Assembly (NCBI RefSeq): GCF_041146345.1
Contig: NW_027191413.1
Location: 1,488,001 to 1,552,000, forward strand
Source of the DNA: Neodothiora populina
Taxonomy: Eukaryota
Direction: 5' to 3'
Length of the DNA: 64,000 nucleotides
The notes beneath the pieces were generated by a model, which was not told the DNA's origin, searched no databases, and saw only the letters and a program-made list of their open reading frames with translations. Position 1 is the stretch's first letter. Every line of letters starts with the position of its first letter. Position numbers and translations under genes: made by a program. Below are positions 31,809 through 56,863 of the stretch, in pieces.

Positions 31809-34197
31809 TTATTCCTCCTGTGCTCCAGACTCAAAAGCTGGCAGTCTAGCGGCTACCTCTGCCCAGGTCTCCTTGCCCTTGCACATTCTGCTGACTGCCT
31901 TGATGACGTCTGCCTCGCTGGCTCTGATTTGCTTGGTGCTGTCGCGATCTCTGAGGGTGAAGGTACCATCCTCGAGGGATTCGTAGTCAACAGTGAGACC
32001 GAATGGAATACCGAGCTCATCGTTACGGGCGTAGCGCTTGCCAATGGACACACCGGTCTGGTCGACCTTGTATGAGATTTGCTTGGCATCGAGCTTGGCC
32101 TCAAGTCTCTGAACAAGAGGCGCAAACTTGGGGTCCTTCTGAAGAGGAACCACGAGAACCTTGATGGGTGCGACAACTGGGTTGAATGAGAGAACCTGGG
32201 AAATCGAGATTAGCAAAGTTGTCAAAGCATCTGATATGCTGTTCATGCTTACAGATCGGGCTTCGTCGTTCTCGCGAGTCCAGTAGCAGTGCTCCATCAA
32301 GCTGTAGAGAATGCGTCCAATACCGAAAGAAGGCTCGATAACATTGGGCACAAATTCTCTGAAAGTGACGTTCCTCTTCTGCTTCTCGAACTTAACAACA
32401 GAGGTGTCGAGTTCCACCTTGCCGCCTTCGACACTTGCCACAGGAAGCTCAACCTTACCCTCCTTGTCCATTGTGATCGATAGCTTCTCACGCATGTCTT
32501 GTGTGAGTTCTTCGAGTGCGGTCTCGACGGCCTTGGCGTCCTTCTTGAACTTGGGTCCGGACTTCTTCTTGTCAAGTACGGGCATCCACTCCTCCACAAC
32601 GTAAGGCTCCTTGAGCAGCTCACGGGCTCTCAAGGGCTGGCCTGTGGCTTTCTCGTGTACGCTCAAGTCGTAGGCAGAACGATCGGCACAACCGACACAC
32701 TCGGTCCAGCCATATGAGTTGAGAAGCTCGCAATCCCAGCAGTCCGAAGCATAATGAGCCATCTCGTTCTCCAAGTGCTGTCTGAACCTGACCTTGCTCA
32801 TATCCATGCCGATCTTCTCCATAAATTGGTTGATTCGTACGAGGAAGTAGCCGAGGGTCTCGTTGTCCACCAGCTTGGTAGATACGGCGTCGCCAATCGC
32901 AACCATCTCAGGAGTGGTGTTTCCTGAAGACTGAGTCTTACGGCTCAGCAGAGGGAGCTTGATGTGAGACACACTGGCGAACTTGGGGTGCTTCTTGCCA
33001 CCCTCTGGGTCGACAAAGTGCTCTATCTCGGCCATCAAGAACTCTCTCACGCGAAGCAGACCAGCGCGAGGAGAAAGCTCGTTACGGAAAGAGTATCCAA
33101 CGGATGCGGAGGCAAAGGGGAGCAGACCATCGCTGAACTCCAAAAGCTTCTGGAAGGAAAGAAATTGACCCTGCGCGGTCTCAGGCCTCAAGAAAGCCGG
33201 TGAGTTACCAGCAGCCCCAATTTGAGTCTGGAACATGAGGTTCACGGCGACCGGGGGCTCAACCTCGTTACCGGTAGAGGGGTTGCGAATGTCGTGCTTC
33301 TTGATCAGCTCGCCCATGGCGTCTCCGGTGAAGTCGTCGAGGACAGCAAGAATGTGAGTGTAGTCGTCGCGAACTGCGTCGTCAAGCTTCACGGCGCCCT
33401 TGTTGACCTTGGCCTTTTTCTTCTTCTTGGGGTCATCTTCCTTGGCCTCAATCTTCACACCGCGGGCCTCCTTGTCACCATCGAGGCGCTGTTCAAGCAC
33501 TTCCTTGATGAGATGGTCTGTTCGCAGGATCTCACCAGTCTTAGGATCCTTGCCTATACCGCTAAAGTCAATTTCTGATCACTAGAATATGATGAAGATG
33601 ATATTCTTACACATGAAGTCTGCGAATCGTTCCCTGTTTGTTATTAGTACATTGTTCATCACATGCGTTATCGGGAACCAAAGCTTCGATTATACGGAAG
33701 ATCCAGAAACTTACACATGACCAGACGTCTTCAGGACTTCATAAGGAGTAAGCATAGAGCATTTGAGTGCCATCATCTTCTCTGTGCGAATGAAGTGATC
33801 TCTCCAAACTTGGATGACATAGTTCTCGAGACCCTCAAGTGGCGGACCATAATCGAACAGGCCCTGATACCTTGGTAAGTCGATCGTCACTGTTTACTTC
33901 CAAGTCGATTTTGCGCACCTTGACAGCTCCGTAAGGCTCGAACGATTGCCAAAGGAAAGTCTTGCGGCGAAGCAGAGACTCAAATGCGGCTCTATCGAAG
34001 GGCTGACCCTTCTGGGTTTGATAATCGGCAGACATGGCTGATGAGCCGCGCGTTTTACTCTGAATTAACGCGCGAAAGTGACTAGCACTGGAATGAAATG
34101 CTTTTCTCCCCGAGACTATGTGCTCCGAAAGGCCAAGTGTAGGGAAAGAAGAGAAATGATTCAGGTGTCTCGGAGGGCAAACGATCCTCTTCAACAT
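31809..34197 (-). CDS. GRS1: Glycyl-tRNA synthetase (alpha2 type) with probable mitochondrial presequence; second start at 34035
   Basis: GLFDYGPP, LKTSGHVERFADFMCKD, LRPETAQGQF, FRNELSPRAGLLRVREF, EMAHYA, VIEPSFGIGR and anticodon domain SIGKRYARNDELG. Four introns, including those flanking a 23-nt exon (33611-33633) and an in-frame 57-nt intron at 32196-32252. Confidence 0.93.
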
Positions 34198-48067: not shown

Positions 48068-49705
48068 TTACATTTGGATAACCACTTGCTCTTCGTCGTC
48101 TATCCAGACAGGAGCTACTCTACGGACTTTGCTCTTGCTAGCCACGTATAACATCAAGTAGACATGCTGCACGACCTCACCCCAACAGAAGATCTTGATC
48201 TGACCCAATCCTGGACTTGTGGATGCTGATTTGTCTCGCATGGTGTCTACGCACATACCATTGTCCACATCCCTCGTGCACCACACGCCCCACCCCGACT
48301 TCCCAGTGCCCACATGTCGAATTAAGAAACGCCAGAATTGAAGCTGTAGACCAACCGACCAGGTGCTCGCATCGAGTAACCAGTAACCTCGCTCCGACTG
48401 GCGCGGTACCCTTACAACATGCTTTGGCTTATAACGATCAGAAATTGCAGAGTTGCTCCGCAAAGCGTGCAGCGCCGGCGTTACATGGGACGTGAATGTC
48501 TCGTCAGATGTTGGAGGCGGAGGTGGATGAATAGAGATAGGTAGTTTCTCAATATCTTCCAATCCACCAGGCTTCGCTGGAGTGACTGGCATACGTAGAG
48601 AAGGTCGATCCTTGGTCACTGGGCGCGGCGGAGGAGGCATTGCAATCACTGATTCGGTAATGTTCAATTTAGGGCATAAGTGTTGCATGCTTTGACGTCT
48701 TCTGTTTGCCACTGAAAGCTCATGGTTGCTCTCTGCATCCGCTGCATTGACATTGGCATCTGCATGACTTGTGTTTGGTGCATGTGGTGAGACTTTCGTC
48801 TCTAGAGTCGTGAATGAGTGATTTTCTGGTCTTGTCCGCGCCGGGCCGGGATCTGCACGCGAAGATGTACCAGAATATGGAGGCAGGGCAGTGCTGTCAT
48901 GTAGGGTTTGGTTGGGGAGCGAGCTGACACTTGAGGCTACTTGGCGGATTATCCTAGAAGGGGTGGACGGAGTACGGTTCACCGGCGAAGACAGCCGATG
49001 GTCATGAAATGGTGGAGAACATCTGGAGTTGGTGTCACTCAGCGAGTACGTGCTCGGTAGTTGAGACGGAATGTCGGCTGGCGAGGAACTCTGTCTGGCC
49101 CCCAACAGTGAAGTGGGTTGTCGCCGATTTCCAGGATTCAACGAGGAAGCGACGGCATACTCGGCATGAGCTGAAGATGACGGCGTAATCGCCTCCTCTT
49201 CTGTCGTGGATTCCAGATGTGACAGATTCGCCTGTGCAGGAATCTTTGAAGGGATCGACGCAGTCTGCATCTCAGAAGGTGAGTTTTGCTCACACGGCGA
49301 AGAAGACGATCGCACAGGGTCTAGGATCAATCTCGTGCATGACGCTGGTGTACGTATAGATCCGCCTCCTGAATGTGCATCTTGCGGAGACTCCGAGTTA
49401 ACGCCAACGATGCTGTATATAGGTCCTAAGGAAGAAGTGACAAGTTGAGATTCCAAAGCGGTCCGCGCGAGTTGAGTATCATCCAGGAAGACCGGGGGCG
49501 AAACACGATTGTCTACACCAATTTCACAATGGTTCAAGCTTGTACCCAATGGCGGAACCTCGTCTGCATGAGATGTGGTACTGATCTCGGACTGCCAAGA
49601 TGTTGTCTCTATAGCAGCAAAAGTAGAAAAGGCGTGGGCCTGCCGCTTGTATCGATCATCGTCCCTCTTGGAACTTGGAGCCGTAGTGTGGACAAGGAGC
49701 TCCAT
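48068..49705 (-). CDS. Fungal hypothetical protein (ordered termini, disordered centre)
   Basis: Long ORF with an N-terminal block MELLVHTTAPSSKRDDDRY, a Ser/Pro-rich middle and a Trp-rich C-terminal domain (ERGYW..FW..GWGVWC..IFCWGEVVQHVYLMLYVASK). An in-frame upstream ATG at 49738 is possible. Confidence 0.72.
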   Translation of the reverse strand: MELLVHTTAPSSKRDDDRYKRQAHAFSTFAAIETTSWQSEISTTSHADEVPPLGTSLNHCEIGVDNRVSPPVFLDDTQLARTALESQLVTSSLGPIYSIVGVNSESPQDAHSGGGSIRTPASCTRLILDPVRSSSSPCEQNSPSEMQTASIPSKIPAQANLSHLESTTEEEAITPSSSAHAEYAVASSLNPGNRRQPTSLLGARQSSSPADIPSQLPSTYSLSDTNSRCSPPFHDHRLSSPVNRTPSTPSRIIRQVASSVSSLPNQTLHDSTALPPYSGTSSRADPGPARTRPENHSFTTLETKVSPHAPNTSHADANVNAADAESNHELSVANRRRQSMQHLCPKLNITESVIAMPPPPRPVTKDRPSLRMPVTPAKPGGLEDIEKLPISIHPPPPPTSDETFTSHVTPALHALRSNSAISDRYKPKHVVRVPRQSERGYWLLDASTWSVGLQLQFWRFLIRHVGTGKSGWGVWCTRDVDNGMCVDTMRDKSASTSPGLGQIKIFCWGEVVQHVYLMLYVASKSKVRRVAPVWIDDEEQVVIQM

Positions 49706-50175
49706 CCACGAAATCCAAAAACTGTCTCCAGGAATCATTTATCTCAATGTCCATTATATAGCGTGGGAGTGAGCACAGTTGATGCTCTTGAAATGATGTC
49801 CAATGAGCTGCGATTGAAGTGTCGTATATAGTAAGTGTTTTGCAGAACTGCAATCAAGAAACTCCAACACGAAAAGTCAGTGCTAGAATCTGCATATACA
49901 CAGGAATTATAGTGAAGTGTATTTCAATTATATTGGTAGTATAGACACGGGATGTTTGCTGTAGCAGTGGCAAGACAAAGTACCTTGAGGTACTACTGTA
50001 TAAAAAGAAAGGCGCTAAGCCCGTTTCAAGCGAAGAAAGGCTCCGAAAATCTTGGCGCTCCACTTTCGGTGGGCGGATTTGAAGATATTGTAGATACAGC
50101 AATTATTGTCTCCGACGTCTATACCGCTGTCACAGAGTCTTTCCCCCTCGAAAGTCTCATTCCACATCTCTCAAT

Positions 50176-52115
50176 ATGGCGCCCGCATCTTTGTTGGATC
50201 TCGTCCAGGCGCTACCTGCGACCGACTCATGGGGTCCTCCTGTCACCACTGAGACCATCCGCGATGGCCTTCCTTTCGCTCCGTTTTCCAAGGGTGACAA
50301 GCTCGGTCGCATGGCCGACTGGACTGCCGATGGCAAGGGTCAAGAAAGAGGCGGCAGACAACAATACAACAGGAACTTCAGAGGTAAAGATCCCTTCTTG
50401 CCAGGTTGCGCCGCGCGGGGATGGATCAAATGCATGCAAAGCGCACAGCGTTTCCAATTCTACTGCCTTGCACTTAGCCATGCACAATTTTCTTATTCGT
50501 AGGGGCGCATGCTGACGAATCTCACCAGATCAACCATATGGCGCTGGCGCTGGTCTCCAGGGTATTTTCAGTGCTGAGGGCATGAACGAGGAGAACACCT
50601 TCTCCGTTGTCGACAACTCGCGAACTTCGACACGCACCCGTGGCTTCGGACGTGGCGGCAGCGCTATCTTCCGTGGACGTGGAGGAGCCCGCGGCGGCCA
50701 GGCTCAACGTGGTGCTCGCGGTGGTACCTTCCAGCGTGTTGGCGGAAGAGGTGGACAGCAGCAATACAACAACAACCCCCGTGGCGGTCGCGGTGGCGGT
50801 CCCGGTGGACGAAGGTTCGGCTGGAGAGATTACGACAAGCCCCAGCGCACCAGAGAGGCTTCAGTCCAGCCCAAGGACACCTGGAAGTTGCTCGAGGAGA
50901 TCGACTTCAGCCGTCTGGTCAAGCTCAACCTGGATACCGGAGATGGCGAGGACCTCGACAGCTACGGCTTCCTCTACTACTACGACCGCAGCTACGACAA
51001 GCAGCCCGGTGCGCCCACATCTTTCAAGAAGCTCAACGTTGTCGAGCGCGCTGCATACAACGTCACCACTTCTCTGGATCCCATTATTCAGGACCTTGCA
51101 GACCGCGACGAGGCTTCTATCTTCACCACTGACAACATTCTGTCCATGCTCATGTGCGCCCCCCGCTCTGTCTACTCCTGGGATCTGATCATCACGAGAC
51201 AAGGCAACAAGGTTTTCATCGACAAGCGTGAAGGCTCCAACATTGACAGAGTCACCGTCAACGAGAACGCTGCTGACGCCCCTATGGAAACCTCCGAGGG
51301 CAAGGATACCATCAACAGTGTCGGTCCCCTCATGGAGGAGGCCACCCACATCAACCACGTCTTCCCTATCCAGACTGTTCAGGAGTCCGAGACCCAGAAG
51401 ATTGACATGCCTAACGAGCACCCCTTCTACAACGCCGCTGAGGAGACTGACCCGCCGGCATCTAAGGCTTACAAGTACCGCCGCTTCGATCTTTCCCTCG
51501 AAGCCGATGCTGAGCCCCTTCACATCATCGTCCGTACTGAGATCGATGCCGTTGTCAAAAACAGCATCAGCGGCGAGGACCAGATGATGGTCATCAAGGC
51601 CCTCAACGAGTTCGACAACAAGGCTCAGGGCAGCGGTGGCGCGCTTGACTGGAGAGCCAAGCTCGCCAGTCAGCGTGGTGCCGTTCTTGCAACTGAGATG
51701 AAGAACAACAGCTGCAAGCTCGCTCGCTGGACCACGCAAGCCATCTTGGCCAAGGCTGACCAGATGAAGCTCGGGTAAGTCGAATTATACAAAAGATAGT
51801 GCTGGGAAACAAACCTGCTAACCGCTTGATAGTTTTGTCTCTCGTGTCAACCCCAAGTCTGCCAACGATCATGTCATCTTGGGTGTATTGGGCTACAAAC
51901 CTCGCGAGTTCGCCGCCCAGATGAACCTCAACCTCAACAACGGCTGGGCCATTGTCAGAACATTCGTCGACATGGTCATGAAGGAGCCTGATGGCAAGTA
52001 CGTTATGGTCAAGGACCCCAACAAGCCTACCATCCGCCTCTACAATGTCCCTCTCGACACCTTCGAGGAAGCCGAGGAGCTTGGCATGGTCGCCGAGGAG
52101 GGCCTTGACGAGTAG
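50176..52115 (+). CDS. eIF3d: Eukaryotic translation initiation factor 3 subunit D
   Basis: [24 protein letters not shown]-rich segment, RSVYSWD, TVNENA and [12 protein letters not shown]. Introns 50384-50528 and 51775-51832. Confidence 0.96.
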
Positions 52116-53460
52116 ATATTGCAGAGATATGAGTGCATGTCGAGCAGGGTGTCCGATGAAAGTAGAGGCGTCGCTCACGATTGGCGTTTGCAGGTACCTG
52201 GATGCTTGTAGACATGTGTTTGCTTTATAGCGGGTTAACCAAAAAGAATGGAGATGAGTTTACGCCTTTTTTCAGCTGGCTGCCAGTAAATATTGTTATC
52301 GTGCAAAAACGACAGGATCAAGCGGGATCGAACTTCCATAACACTTGCAGTGTCTTTATATTACTGTTCGCAAGCATCTCCATACATGTACACCTAGGTA
52401 GTGATCGACACCCTCGTGTTTATGATGACCGAAGTTTCCATAAAACCACATGCCTTCGACCTCGGCTCACCGTTTAAAACAAAGCAAGCCTGTCCTGAGC
52501 TCTTTCCGCATTCGATCAGACCTTGTCACCGGAAATATTGCACCTGCTATCACATCCACACTGGTGCCATGGTTGTTTGTGCGTGTCTTCCGCAATAGCC
52601 TACCACAGAGAAAATTTGATGGTCACCGGACTGGACTGGGACAATCCATGTATAGTAAGGTGTTGATGATTGAGCGTTGGCGGCCGACCAAAGTCCGAAT
52701 GACGTTGGCCGCATGCGAGAACTGCCGCCGAAGCTGGGAAAAAGTAAAGCCGGTAGCACTGGTAACACTTAACAGAGGACAAGAGAGAGAAAAGTACCTT
52801 GAAGGCAACAGAATTGTCATGTGAGTGAGCTCGACACGATATCGTATTGTACATGCTTCCAGGCCGCCCGGTAGTGCGCCAACCAGCAATGGACAGAACG
52901 TTATGGCTCTAGCCTCAGCGGTTCTTTCTCACAACTGGACCATGAATGTACCGGACGAGGTACAAATCTACTACGTTCCGGTGAGATCCGGTGGAGTGGC
53001 TTTCCATTGAGGCCTGATCGCTACTAGTTGACGAGAATAAGACCCATGCGTATGACATTACCGGCTCACTGCGCGACAAAAAGTGCTCGTTGACACGGGA
53101 GAAGTTCGACTGGACAGCACAAGTCATATCTAGTGAGATTCCACCGAGTACCTACCGTGTTGTACTTACAAGTACAGTGCAATAAAGTAAGCGGCTCCAG
53201 GATTGGTAGGGTGCCTAGAGGTACGTTGCTGTACCACGTACCGTAATCTAGTGCACCAACGAATCATTTAAATTAGCAGTGAGCCTCTGTGCAAGTACAA
53301 GTAGGCTCTGGAGATAGGGCGATGACTTGACGGAAGGGTCGAAACAAGCTCCGGTGGAATAAGCAGTGCGCACTTGGCAGGGCAATGATGGGCTCGTGCA
53401 CGACATTTGCGATGCAGATGAGGCAGATTAGAGGGGTGTAGCAACTAGCGCAAGGTGGGA

Positions 53461-53489
53461 GTCGCTGAGTCGCTGGGTCGCTGAGTCGC
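53461..53489. repeat. Short tandem 8-mer repeat (GTCGCTGR, ~3.6 copies) upstream of the ErdS-like gene
   Basis: gtcgctga-gtcgctgg-gtcgctga-gtcgc, read directly from the sequence. Confidence 0.7.
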
Positions 53490-53914
53490 AGTTCAAGTTC
53501 AGTTTAGGCGGTTGCGTCACACCCACGTCCTGCCTGCCTCCCGCATTTCTCACTTTCTCGCTGAGGTGGGTTTACCCTACCTTACCTGCCCGCAACGGTT
53601 CTATCCTCCACGGACCCCCAATTCTTCAGCGACAATTGTTCCCTGAGAGCTCCGTCAGATCTGACTTTGCTTTCTTTTCCATCTTGCCACATACCCTCCT
53701 CTCCATCGTAGAGACTTTTTCTTTCTTATCAAGTCTCACCTCCACCATCGGCGCCGCTGTCCTTGCCACAGCCCCACCGTAGCAAGTGTCCGCCCAAGGC
53801 AGACACGCCCAAGACGCCCTTCACCCCCGTAAGCTTACCCACTATTTTGGACCGTTCCTCGACTCTGTACAGCATGGCTGACTTGATCATCGTGACACAG
53901 TGTCTGCGCCCGCC

Positions 53915-56863
53915 ATGAAGAAGGCATTGCACAAGTTGACTCTCCACGGCACGCCGTCGAGCAGCAACCCGGGCAGTGACACCGAGGCCAGCACTCCGGT
54001 CCGGCATAGCTTCGACAATGCCAATGGCTCGCGTGGTTCCCTCGACCGCTTCCGTTCGCCGCGAGCCTCGACATCTGTCGACCACCATCGTCCAACCCAC
54101 AGCCCTCTGGGCGCCTTCCGCCAAAGGCTTAGGAGAAGCTCGTCTTCAGACAGCGACCTCCCGCTGAACCGCGATGGCGATCCCATGAGCAAGGGTCAGC
54201 AGAACAAGACCGAGAAGATCATTCAGAAAGAAGCGCACAGGAAGGAGGCCGAGGCTCGCGCCGAGGCCGACCGCCAACGCAAGCTTGAGGCTGAGGCCCG
54301 CGCCGCTATTGGCGAGACAGATGAGATGAAGACCAAGTACGGAGTTCTGCCCATCAACAACTACTCTCTGGCAGCGCCACCAAACGAGATCCGCGTTGAT
54401 CTCCGTGCGCTGACACCAGAGCACATCGGTCAGCTCGTCACATTCAGAGCCCGAGTCCACAACATCCGTAAGATCAGTGCCCATCTCGTCTTTATTGAGC
54501 TTCGCCAGCAGACGGTCACCATCCAGGGTGTTATTCACAAGAACGATTTGATCTCCCCTCACATGGTCTACTGGGCCGAGCATCTCCACCTCGAGACTGT
54601 CGTCCGAGTGAGAGGTGCCCTCCAGGAACCCAAGTCCAAGCAGGGCGAGATCATTGGCGCTTCTATCCACAACCTTGAGATCGCCATCCTTGAGTTGCAT
54701 GCCGAGGGATCCCCTACTGAGCCTCTTCCGTTCAGTGTCGGCGAAGCTGAGGTCACCAAGGAGGAGTCCGAGGCATCTCAGCACACTCGCCACTTCGTCT
54801 CAGATCGTGCGAGATTGAGCAACCGCATTATTGATTTGCGAACCACAACTTCTCAAAGCATCTTCCGTGTTCAATCGGTCGTCTCCACACTCTTCCGTGA
54901 GTTCTTGCTCAAGCAGGACTTTATTGAGATCCACACCCCCAAGCTTCAGGGTGGTGCTACTGAGTCTGGCGCCAGTGTGTTCAAGGTAGACTACTTTGGC
55001 AGACCGGCATTCCTCGCCCAGTCTCCTCAGCTGGCGAAGCAAATGTCCATCGCGGCTGACTTCAGGAAAGTCTTCGAGGTCGGTGCCGTTTTCCGTGCGG
55101 AGAACAGCAACACTCATAGACACATGACCGAGTACACTGGTCTGGATCTGGAAATGGCTATCGACGAGCACTACCATGAAGTATTGCGCACACTTGACAA
55201 TCTGTTCAAGTACATCTTCAAGGGAGTCTACGAACGATGCCGCCACGAGGTCGATGTTGTCAAGCGCCAATTTCCTCACGAAGACCTTGTCATCGCAGAC
55301 GTCACACCAGTCATTCCTTTCAAGGAGGCTATCGCAATGTTGAACGAGTCAGGATGGAGAAAAGAGAACGGAGATTTACTCCCTGACGATGAGGACCTCG
55401 GCACTAGAGATGAAATCCATCTCGGAGCAGTTGTCAAGGAGAAGTACAACGCTGATTACTATGTCCTGGACAAATTTCCTACTGGTGCCCGACCGTTCTA
55501 CGCAATGGAGGACCCCAACGACGCGCGATACACCAACTCCTTCGATATTTTCCTCAGAGGGCAGGAGATCTTGTCCGGTGGCCAACGTATCCATGACGCT
55601 ACCATGCTCAGGGAGAAGATGGAGCGCATGAAGGTGGATCCCAGCGTCATGGAAGAGTACATGCAAGGATTCGAGTGGGCTGCTCCTCCTCACGGAGGTG
55701 GTGGTATTGGCTTGGAGAGAATGCTCATGCTCTTCCTGCAACTCGGAGATATCAGACACGCCACCTTGTATCCTCGCGACCCGAAGTCCCTTCCAGCCAA
55801 GCCTGTTATCAAGCAGCTGAGACATCCCGAAGCAAGCACCATGCACCCCGCATGGGAAGGCAAGGACAGGGCAGCCGCCGGCATGGATCTTCCACCGGTC
55901 GAGATGCTTATTGCCAACTATGGAGATGCCTCAAACACCTCATGGCTTGAGCCACGCACAGAGATCTGGCGTGACGAACTCACCGGCGCTGCTGTTGGCT
56001 TCGTTCCCCATCAAGGATATGCCATCACTGTTGGCGACCCGCTGTGCCACGTTTCTCAGTACACCAAGATCATCAGCGGTTATCTCCGCTACATCAAGAA
56101 GGAGAGGAATTTGAAGCCTCTCTGGCTTCTGTGCGGTGCGGATGCTGAGGAAGTTCTTGCATCTAAGCTCGACTGGAGGACCTTCTCGGTGGCTGCTGAG
56201 CAACGCCTAGATCCGGGCAACAACCCAGCTGTACACGATCACGACATCCAGCGCAAGATCCGTCACGCTGAGAAGGAAGGCGTCAAGATCCATGATATCC
56301 CTCTCGGTGGCCCTGTGCCAGCACCCGTGAAGGAAAAGATCGACCAGCGTATCAAGGATTGGTTGGCCAACCGTAAGGGCAAGCAGGTCCATCTGACCAA
56401 CATCCACCCGTGGCAAGATGTTGCCCACCGCAAGTACCATTATTCCGTGGACAAAGAAGGCAACATTGCTGGTTTGGTCATCATGGCACAGCTGTCGCCT
56501 GATCATGGCTGGCAAGTCAAGTTCTCTCTTGACTTTCCGGGAGCACCATCCGGCGCAATTGAATTCCTTGTCATGCACGCCCTCAAGGAGGCTGCTGCTA
56601 GTGGCGCAACTTCTGTCACCTTCGGCGGTGGTGCTACGAGCAAGCTCAACCCCGGTCACAACCTCAAGGGTACCCGAATCAAGGTGCTCAGCAAGGCTTA
56701 CCACGCCATCGCGACTGAGCTCAAGCTCACCAACAAGAGTGAGTTCAGAGAGAAGCTTGGCGCACAGGAGGATCCGGTGTACATCTGTTACCCTCCTCAT
56801 GGCTTGGGACCCGGTGGTGTCAAGGCCATTCTTTCTTTCTTCGAAGATGATACCAACCAGTAA
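53915..56863 (+). CDS. erdS: Aspartyl-tRNA synthetase fused to a DUF2156-like aminoacyl-tRNA transferase (ergosteryl-3beta-O-L-aspartate synthase)
   Basis: OB fold (VTFRARVHNIR), eukaryote-type AspRS signature LAQSPQL, motif 2 FRAENSNTHRH and motif 3 PPHGGGGIGLER. About 350 further aa follow in frame (GDPLC, KIRHAEKEGV, FSLDFPGAPSGAIEFL, FREKLGA). ATG at 53915 in a CGCC context; probable 5'UTR intron 53829-53900. Confidence 0.92.
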   Translation: MKKALHKLTLHGTPSSSNPGSDTEASTPVRHSFDNANGSRGSLDRFRSPRASTSVDHHRPTHSPLGAFRQRLRRSSSSDSDLPLNRDGDPMSKGQQNKTEKIIQKEAHRKEAEARAEADRQRKLEAEARAAIGETDEMKTKYGVLPINNYSLAAPPNEIRVDLRALTPEHIGQLVTFRARVHNIRKISAHLVFIELRQQTVTIQGVIHKNDLISPHMVYWAEHLHLETVVRVRGALQEPKSKQGEIIGASIHNLEIAILELHAEGSPTEPLPFSVGEAEVTKEESEASQHTRHFVSDRARLSNRIIDLRTTTSQSIFRVQSVVSTLFREFLLKQDFIEIHTPKLQGGATESGASVFKVDYFGRPAFLAQSPQLAKQMSIAADFRKVFEVGAVFRAENSNTHRHMTEYTGLDLEMAIDEHYHEVLRTLDNLFKYIFKGVYERCRHEVDVVKRQFPHEDLVIADVTPVIPFKEAIAMLNESGWRKENGDLLPDDEDLGTRDEIHLGAVVKEKYNADYYVLDKFPTGARPFYAMEDPNDARYTNSFDIFLRGQEILSGGQRIHDATMLREKMERMKVDPSVMEEYMQGFEWAAPPHGGGGIGLERMLMLFLQLGDIRHATLYPRDPKSLPAKPVIKQLRHPEASTMHPAWEGKDRAAAGMDLPPVEMLIANYGDASNTSWLEPRTEIWRDELTGAAVGFVPHQGYAITVGDPLCHVSQYTKIISGYLRYIKKERNLKPLWLLCGADAEEVLASKLDWRTFSVAAEQRLDPGNNPAVHDHDIQRKIRHAEKEGVKIHDIPLGGPVPAPVKEKIDQRIKDWLANRKGKQVHLTNIHPWQDVAHRKYHYSVDKEGNIAGLVIMAQLSPDHGWQVKFSLDFPGAPSGAIEFLVMHALKEAAASGATSVTFGGGATSKLNPGHNLKGTRIKVLSKAYHAIATELKLTNKSEFREKLGAQEDPVYICYPPHGLGPGGVKAILSFFEDDTNQ

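Follow-up and report, generated by a model that had tools for sequence, protein, structure and literature searches.

The window studied here is a stretch of 64,000 nucleotides from the fungus Neodothiora populina (contig NW_027191413.1, positions 1,488,001 to 1,552,000), and the gene in question, erdS, lies on its forward strand, where it encodes an aspartyl-tRNA synthetase (AspRS) joined to a DUF2156 aminoacyl-tRNA transferase. Listing the open reading frames (ORFs) under the standard code revealed a 982-codon uninterrupted ORF at 53915..56863, in a frame that is open from 53882 to the stop codon at 56861-56863. The ATG at 53915 is the first in this frame, and the product (P0001) is 982 residues long. 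The start codon and intron-less gene model are well supported, because the N-terminal MKKALHKL recurs in homologues P0002, P0004, P0010, and P0012 and the protein collection we searched already contains an identical 982-residue sequence.

A Pfam profile search of the product recovered three domains, each above its own gathering score. An earlier note on this DNA, made from the letters alone, had described a complete eukaryote-type AspRS with its OB fold from ~54430, QSPQ at ~55020, and motifs 2 and 3, and we found all of these close to where they had been placed: the OB-fold domain begins at nt 54437, QSPQ is at residue 369 (nt 55019), motif 2 reads FRAENSNTHRH at residues 393-403, and motif 3 is the GLER at residues 599-602. 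The archaeal/eukaryal AspRS equivalog TIGR00458 of NCBIfam was also matched, at 433 bits vs its cut-off of 368.4. The claim that the protein does not stop at the usual PRDP terminus, put at ~55780, but continues for ~350 residues held equally well, with PRDP at residue 620 (nt 55772) and ~360 more residues after it that contain a PF09924 match (E 2.4e-12, 47 bits vs a cut-off of 27.5) spanning profile positions 18-297 of 298. Profiles for tRNA-synt_2 and DUF2156, the pairing suggested as a check, were thus both matched above cut-off in one polypeptide. The N-terminal extension is basic, as had been noticed, with an isoelectric point (pI) of 9.9 over 165 residues; it comprises a low-complexity head (residues 1-90, pI 11.1) and a charged helical stretch rich in K, R, E, and A (residues 91-140) that begins MSKGQQNKTEK. 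No transmembrane helix is indicated in the protein, again as claimed, because the highest 19-residue Kyte-Doolittle mean, at residue 458 inside the synthetase core, is only 1.53, and the Pfam search gave no match to a membrane domain.

The best matches among sequences of the Protein Data Bank (PDB) were 9w9f_A, 9w9e_A, and 9w9g_A, from the cryo-EM models 9W9E/F/G of Aspergillus fumigatus ErdS, the ergosteryl-3beta-O-L-aspartate synthase (Murayama et al. 2026, PMC13219428). Residues 60-978 aligned to residues 29-947 of 9w9f_A, that is, to the C-terminus of the chain (E = 0, 1119.8 bits), a match far beyond chance because this E value was obtained against a solved orthologue, and the solved transferase domain aligned to our sequence without large gaps. 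Yeast AspRS (1asy) came next among the PDB matches with E 1.5e-134. A protein search returned 1296 proteins at E <= 0.001; the best 120 of these, consisting of this protein and its 119 closest homologues, were aligned with MAFFT, and all residue counts given here come from that set. PF00152 and PF09924 occur together in 120 of the 120, at identities of 62-84%, and the closest named relatives among the matches listed belong to the Dothideales: Delphinella strobiligena (82% over 100% of the length), Zalaria obscura, and Aureobasidium pullulans. It had been suggested that annotation pipelines tend to call such proteins plain AspRS, and the names given by the sources bear this out among the matches listed, most being 'aspartyl-tRNA synthetase-like' or 'aspartate--tRNA ligase dps1' and a few, from JGI, 'ergosteryl-3beta-O-L-aspartate synthase'.

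The chain numbering in the alignment reproduces the residue numbers of the structural paper, so the mutational map of the A. fumigatus enzyme can be transferred directly, and we verified the transferred positions on the N. populina sequence. In the pocket that receives the CCA end of the tRNA, single mutants of W785, R789, K790, G791, Q793, H795, F913, and K916 are all reported with R < 0.5 (PMC13219428), and all eight residues are identical here (W816, R820, K821, G822, Q824, H826, F944, and K947). The proposed general base H795 and the proposed oxyanion stabiliser R914 (PMC13219428) are conserved as H826 and R945, and each of the eight pocket residues, like R945, is present in 119-120 of the 120 homologues. 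The quadruple mutant R749/K750/R752/R753 in the alpha(+) helix is described as abolishing activity (PMC13219428); the corresponding residues here are R780/K781/R783/H784, which retain three of the four basic residues and replace R753 by His, the state found in 115 of 120. Nine of 16 sterol-cavity residues are identical (Y637, T643, S644, W645, R649, E731, W802, Q836, and K838 in A. fumigatus numbering); mutation of Q836 reportedly abolished activity, S644 had the strongest single effect, and W645 and K838 were milder (PMC13219428). The stretch MSKGQQNKTEK (residues 91-101) aligns to LSRNQQKRLAR (59-69) at the start of the A. fumigatus N-terminal helix (59-102) that clamps the tRNA elbow (PMC13219428). 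Finally, the synthetase signatures QSPQ, FRAENSNTHRH, and GLER are invariant across all 120 proteins except at H401 (111 of 120). The full-length alignment to 9W9E/F/G and the conservation of the tested transferase residues bear out the assignment to the ErdS type made in the earlier note.

Table 1. Features of the N. populina erdS gene and its product, with the seven sterol-cavity residues that differ from A. fumigatus ErdS and the frequency of each state among the 120 listed homologues.
Feature	Residues	Window position	Strand	Evidence
erdS coding sequence, single exon, 982 residues + stop		53915..56863	+	ORF; full-length match to A. fumigatus ErdS chains
N-terminal extension	1-165	53915..54409	+	composition; alignment to A. 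fumigatus ErdS
OB-fold anticodon-binding domain	175-251	54437..54667	+	PF01336 (tRNA_anti-codon), E 1.5e-08, 34.9 bits vs cut-off 27
Class IIb AspRS catalytic core (D/K/N synthetase)	298-622	54806..55780	+	PF00152 (tRNA-synt_2), E 9e-73
AspRS-transferase linker	627-676	55793..55942	+	between Pfam envelopes; aligned to A. fumigatus 596-644 with one 3-residue gap
DUF2156/LPG_synthase_C, aminoacyl-tRNA transferase (ATT), double-GNAT fold	677-958	55943..56788	+	PF09924
Sterol-cavity residue	S673			102/120 listed
Sterol-cavity residue	N674			120/120 listed
Sterol-cavity residue	E679			120/120 listed
Sterol-cavity residue	D708			115/120 listed
Sterol-cavity residue	V759			111/120 listed
Sterol-cavity residue	D743			27/120 listed; minority, variable column
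Sterol-cavity residue	N829			13/120 listed; minority, D in 97

Taken together with its full-length alignment, this pattern of residues indicates that the gene is very probably an orthologue of fungal erdS whose product works by the mechanism described in A. fumigatus, which we take as the best explanation here because the residues tested in that species are conserved. In A. fumigatus, the AspRS domain of ErdS is reported to make Asp-tRNA-Asp, the tRNA stays clamped as its CCA end moves to the GNAT II pocket, and a transesterification places the Asp on the ergosterol 3beta-OH (PMC7334510; PMC13219428). By analogy, the AspRS domain of the N. populina protein would activate Asp with ATP and then charge tRNA-Asp, which the N-terminal helix and the anticodon-binding domain would keep bound. 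The acceptor CCA end would then swing into the C-terminal double-GNAT (DUF2156) domain, where H826 (H795 in A. fumigatus) may deprotonate the 3beta-OH of ergosterol for attack on the aminoacyl ester and R945 (R914) may stabilise the oxyanion, giving ergosteryl-aspartate (Erg-Asp) as the predicted product. We infer from the same analogy that the gene is expressed and that the enzyme is active. Erg-Asp has been detected by thin-layer chromatography in eight Ascomycota, including the dothideomycete Alternaria alternata (PMC7334510).

Several observations weigh against this reading. Seven of the 16 sterol-cavity residues differ from A. fumigatus (T641S, S642N, D647E, N677D, E712D, C728V, and E798N, of which D647E is conservative). 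The motif published for the clamp helix, xSKxxLKKxx (PMC13219428), is matched in part, with the S-K pair and downstream lysines present and the LKK core not literal; M. oryzae is likewise reported to be without it (PMC13219428). A separate canonical AspRS, which presumably serves translation in this organism, is taken from a published statement about ErdS fungi. Lastly, the gene erdH, encoding an alpha/beta hydrolase of family PF07859 that hydrolyses Erg-Asp, is reported to adjoin erdS and to be transcribed divergently from it in A. fumigatus, A. oryzae, and N. crassa (Yakobov et al. 2020, PMC7334510), an arrangement found 'almost always' in other species too (PMC7334510), and we detected no PF07859 match in any of three sets of ORFs from the window. 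These were 120 of the 121 ORFs of at least 110 residues (E <= 1e-4), the remaining one being erdS itself; the 36 ORFs of 35-109 residues that overlap 52100-53920 (E <= 1); and 87 of the 114 ORFs of 60-109 residues between 43.8 kb and the window end, the 27 that were dropped having been covered in the 52100-53920 scan (16) or lying inside erdS (11). These scans left out 240 ORFs of 60-109 residues before 43.8 kb. The linkage of erdS to erdH is typical of the family and not strictly defining.

The cavity substitutions raise the possibility that the enzyme is active and of the ErdS type, but that lineage-specific changes in the cavity have given it an acceptor or product other than Erg-Asp, for example another 3beta-OH sterol. 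The seven differences speak for this alternative, yet most mutations of these cavity residues are reported to have slight or non-significant effects in A. fumigatus (PMC13219428), and the positions with strong effects, Q836 and S644, are unchanged in N. populina. Five of the seven substitutions are moreover the majority state among the 120 listed homologues (Table 1); judged from this alignment, most differences from A. fumigatus are lineage-typical and not peculiar to the N. populina gene. Ergosterol is also the major fungal sterol, and the report of Erg-Asp in Alternaria alternata points the same way, so we regard a different acceptor as very unlikely. We consider it extremely improbable that the gene, intact in sequence, is a silent or non-functional, decaying paralogue: nothing breaks the frame of 982 codons, the catalytic and tRNA-pocket residues tested in A. 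fumigatus are all conserved, and identity to the nearest named orthologue is 82% over 100% of the length. Conservation together with an intact frame fits purifying selection.

A further alternative concerns the synthetase half of the protein, which could be the main cytosolic AspRS for translation, with DUF2156 as an accessory and with no separate canonical AspRS in the genome. The AspRS domain is indeed complete and conserved, A. fumigatus ErdS is reported to complement a yeast dps1 deletion (PMC13219428), and Pfam searches of window ORFs of at least 110 residues gave no other tRNA-synt_2 gene in the 64 kb. Those 64 kb make up only a tiny fraction of a fungal genome, however, and according to both papers Dikarya that carry ErdS invariably possess a second, canonical AspRS, the reason given being that ErdS holds on to tRNA-Asp and is poor at releasing Asp-tRNA (PMC7334510; PMC13219428). 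Among 73 related metagenomic loci that we compared, those designated L054, L059, and L061-L073 are AspRS-only, matching nothing outside residues 136-626 and showing 40-60% identity there, and some metagenome data sets contain both AspRS-only and ErdS loci, which argues against the ErdS-type gene being the sole synthetase. When only the AspRS domain served as the query of a protein search, the best 120 matches comprised truncated ErdS models together with canonical AspRSs, mostly from basidiomycetes, with identities of 48-57%; none of these 120 was the canonical AspRS of a named relative in the Dothideales, a result that is uninformative on the N. populina genome. A scan for tRNA genes found none in the window, hence no nearby tRNA-Asp. 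We regard a housekeeping role as the main cytosolic AspRS as highly improbable and retain the reading of the gene as an erdS orthologue.

Two features near the 5' end of erdS may bear on how its product is made. An upstream ORF (uORF) of 14 codons is present at 53874-53918 on the same strand; its ATG is flanked by A at -3 and G at +4, and its TGA stop overlaps the start codon of erdS (ATGA). Should this uORF be part of the 5' untranslated region, it could modulate erdS translation. Within the coding sequence, an internal Met at residue 91 (window position 54185) stands directly ahead of the tRNA-clamp helix, and the 893-residue homologue P0007 begins at the equivalent MSKAQQ. Starts of this kind may reflect either truncated gene models, in some cases, or an alternative start that yields a form without the basic low-complexity head.

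The gene upstream of erdS encodes subunit D of eIF3 (eIF3d); it is on the same strand and comprises three exons at ~50083-52115. Downstream are an Fcf2-domain gene on the plus strand and a purine-nucleoside-phosphorylase-like gene on the minus strand. In the ~1.8 kb that separate the eIF3d stop from the start of erdS (52116-53914) we found no Pfam-recognisable ORF of at least 35 residues; for a compact fungal genome this gap is long, and it corresponds to the erdH position in Aspergillus and Neurospora. Beside eIF3d, at 48071-49738 on the minus strand, is a Ser/Pro-rich ORF of 556 residues with no Pfam match. When nine window neighbours were compared with the 73 metagenomic loci by tblastn, only eIF3d and this adjacent ORF were found, in L039 and L041, ~6-8 kb downstream of ErdS, and the pair is conserved there (44% identity over 163 residues). 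Neighbourhoods of ErdS otherwise vary among loci: a Questin_oxidase-like gene stands close upstream on the same strand in L027, L031, and L036 and several kb downstream on the opposite strand in L043, a cytochrome P450 lies downstream in L031, L035, and L036, and a HECT_2 gene is near ErdS in L005, L013, and L019. None of these three adjoins erdS in the window. The window also contains a glycyl-tRNA synthetase (GlyRS) gene at 31812-33578 on the minus strand, with HGTP_anticodon and tRNA-synt_2b domains and a match to human GlyRS chains at E 1.9e-140; no freestanding DUF2156 was found among window ORFs of at least 110 residues, and the presence of GlyRS near erdS is probably a coincidental co-location.

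We found that erdS is not linked to erdH in the window or in the related metagenomic loci examined. PF07859 was absent from 57 minus-strand ORFs of at least 100 residues within 4.5 kb upstream of ErdS at 11 metagenomic loci, these being 57 of the 65 ORFs listed (L038 was left out as a duplicate of L017, and L027 has no such ORF). It was absent as well from 132 ORFs of at least 130 residues within 6 kb on either side of ErdS at 18 metagenomic loci, which remained of 198 after the removal of shadow ORFs; L009, L041, L046, L055, and L060 had been dropped as duplicates of L001, L039, L045, L010, and L038. An ORF-based Pfam scan of this kind could miss an intron-rich erdH. A six-frame search of the window and the 73 loci for the esterase motifs HGGG and G-D/E/Q-S-A/S-G gave seven weak matches, none with both motifs, and was discarded as a weak test. 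The 2020 paper may already show unlinked arrangements in its Fig. 6A or its supplements; '//' appears in the legend (PMC7334510). A hydrolase was seen together with ErdS in one listed homologue, P0074, a protein of 1380 residues labelled Quercus suber and 67% identical, which carries the ErdS domains plus the alpha/beta-hydrolase families PF12697, PF00561, and PF12146; it probably stems from fungal contamination and a merged gene model, and its hydrolase falls outside the ErdH family PF07859. As a tentative and rather unlikely scenario, a Dothideales-like lineage may have uncoupled erdS from erdH, through separation or loss, with the level of Erg-Asp set otherwise, for example by the 14-codon uORF or a different esterase, and with S642N, N677D, C728V, and R753H possibly shifting acceptor preference.

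To our knowledge, no eukaryotic enzyme family other than ErdS has been described that diverts aminoacyl-tRNA to the modification of a membrane sterol. The N. populina gene is an ordinary member of that known family, correctly identified and of low novelty, because the family has been on record since 2020, when 780 ErdS sequences were reported across Dikarya (PMC7334510), and its structure and physiology were published in 2026, the product being reported to affect hyphal growth, sporulation, and germination in A. fumigatus (PMC13219428). Nothing here is new in principle, the gene being a well-conserved orthologue in a lineage from which family and product have already been reported. The practical value lies in annotation, as public names of the type 'aspartyl-tRNA synthetase' hide a lipid-modifying function. 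Only mildly new are the short uORF that overlaps the start codon and the failure of the published erdS-erdH linkage in this sample of the lineage, and the latter is a point of modest interest.

Among known systems, ergosteryl-glycine synthase (ErgS) is a paralogous DUF2156 transferase that likewise acylates the 3beta-OH of ergosterol from aminoacyl-tRNA, but it is described as freestanding, with no fused synthetase and with Gly-tRNA supplied by a separate GlyRS (PMC8913301), whereas the N. populina protein has a complete AspRS. Identity with ErgS is excluded on that ground. The bacterial MprF/aminoacyl-phosphatidylglycerol synthases and the mycobacterial LysX have the PF09924 fold and tRNA-dependent lipid aminoacylation in common with this protein. 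LysX, a LysRS-MprF fusion, also joins a synthetase to a transferase, and these bacterial enzymes have an integral-membrane domain and glycerolipid substrates. An MprF-type membrane enzyme is excluded by the lack of any transmembrane segment, and likeness to LysX beyond the synthetase core is excluded by the LysX model NF002821, which scored 84 bits vs a cut-off of 742 and matched the synthetase part only. Yeast Dps1 (1ASY) matches at E 5.7e-135 across the OB fold and class IIb core and has the same QSPQ, motif 2, and motif 3 sequences, but ends right after PRDP (the 1asy chain runs two residues past the alignment), whereas the N. populina protein continues. The closest counterpart is A. fumigatus ErdS (AFUA_1g02570; 9W9E/9W9F/9W9G), which has the same order of N-terminal helix, OB fold, AspRS core, linker, and double-GNAT transferase. 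The N. populina protein differs from it in an N-terminal head that is ~31 residues longer, the change of R753 to His, seven cavity substitutions that are mostly lineage-typical, and a partial xSKxxLKKxx, and its gene has eIF3d upstream on the same strand where that of A. fumigatus has a divergent erdH; the CCA pocket, the catalytic His and Arg, and the key sterol-cavity residues are identical in the two enzymes.

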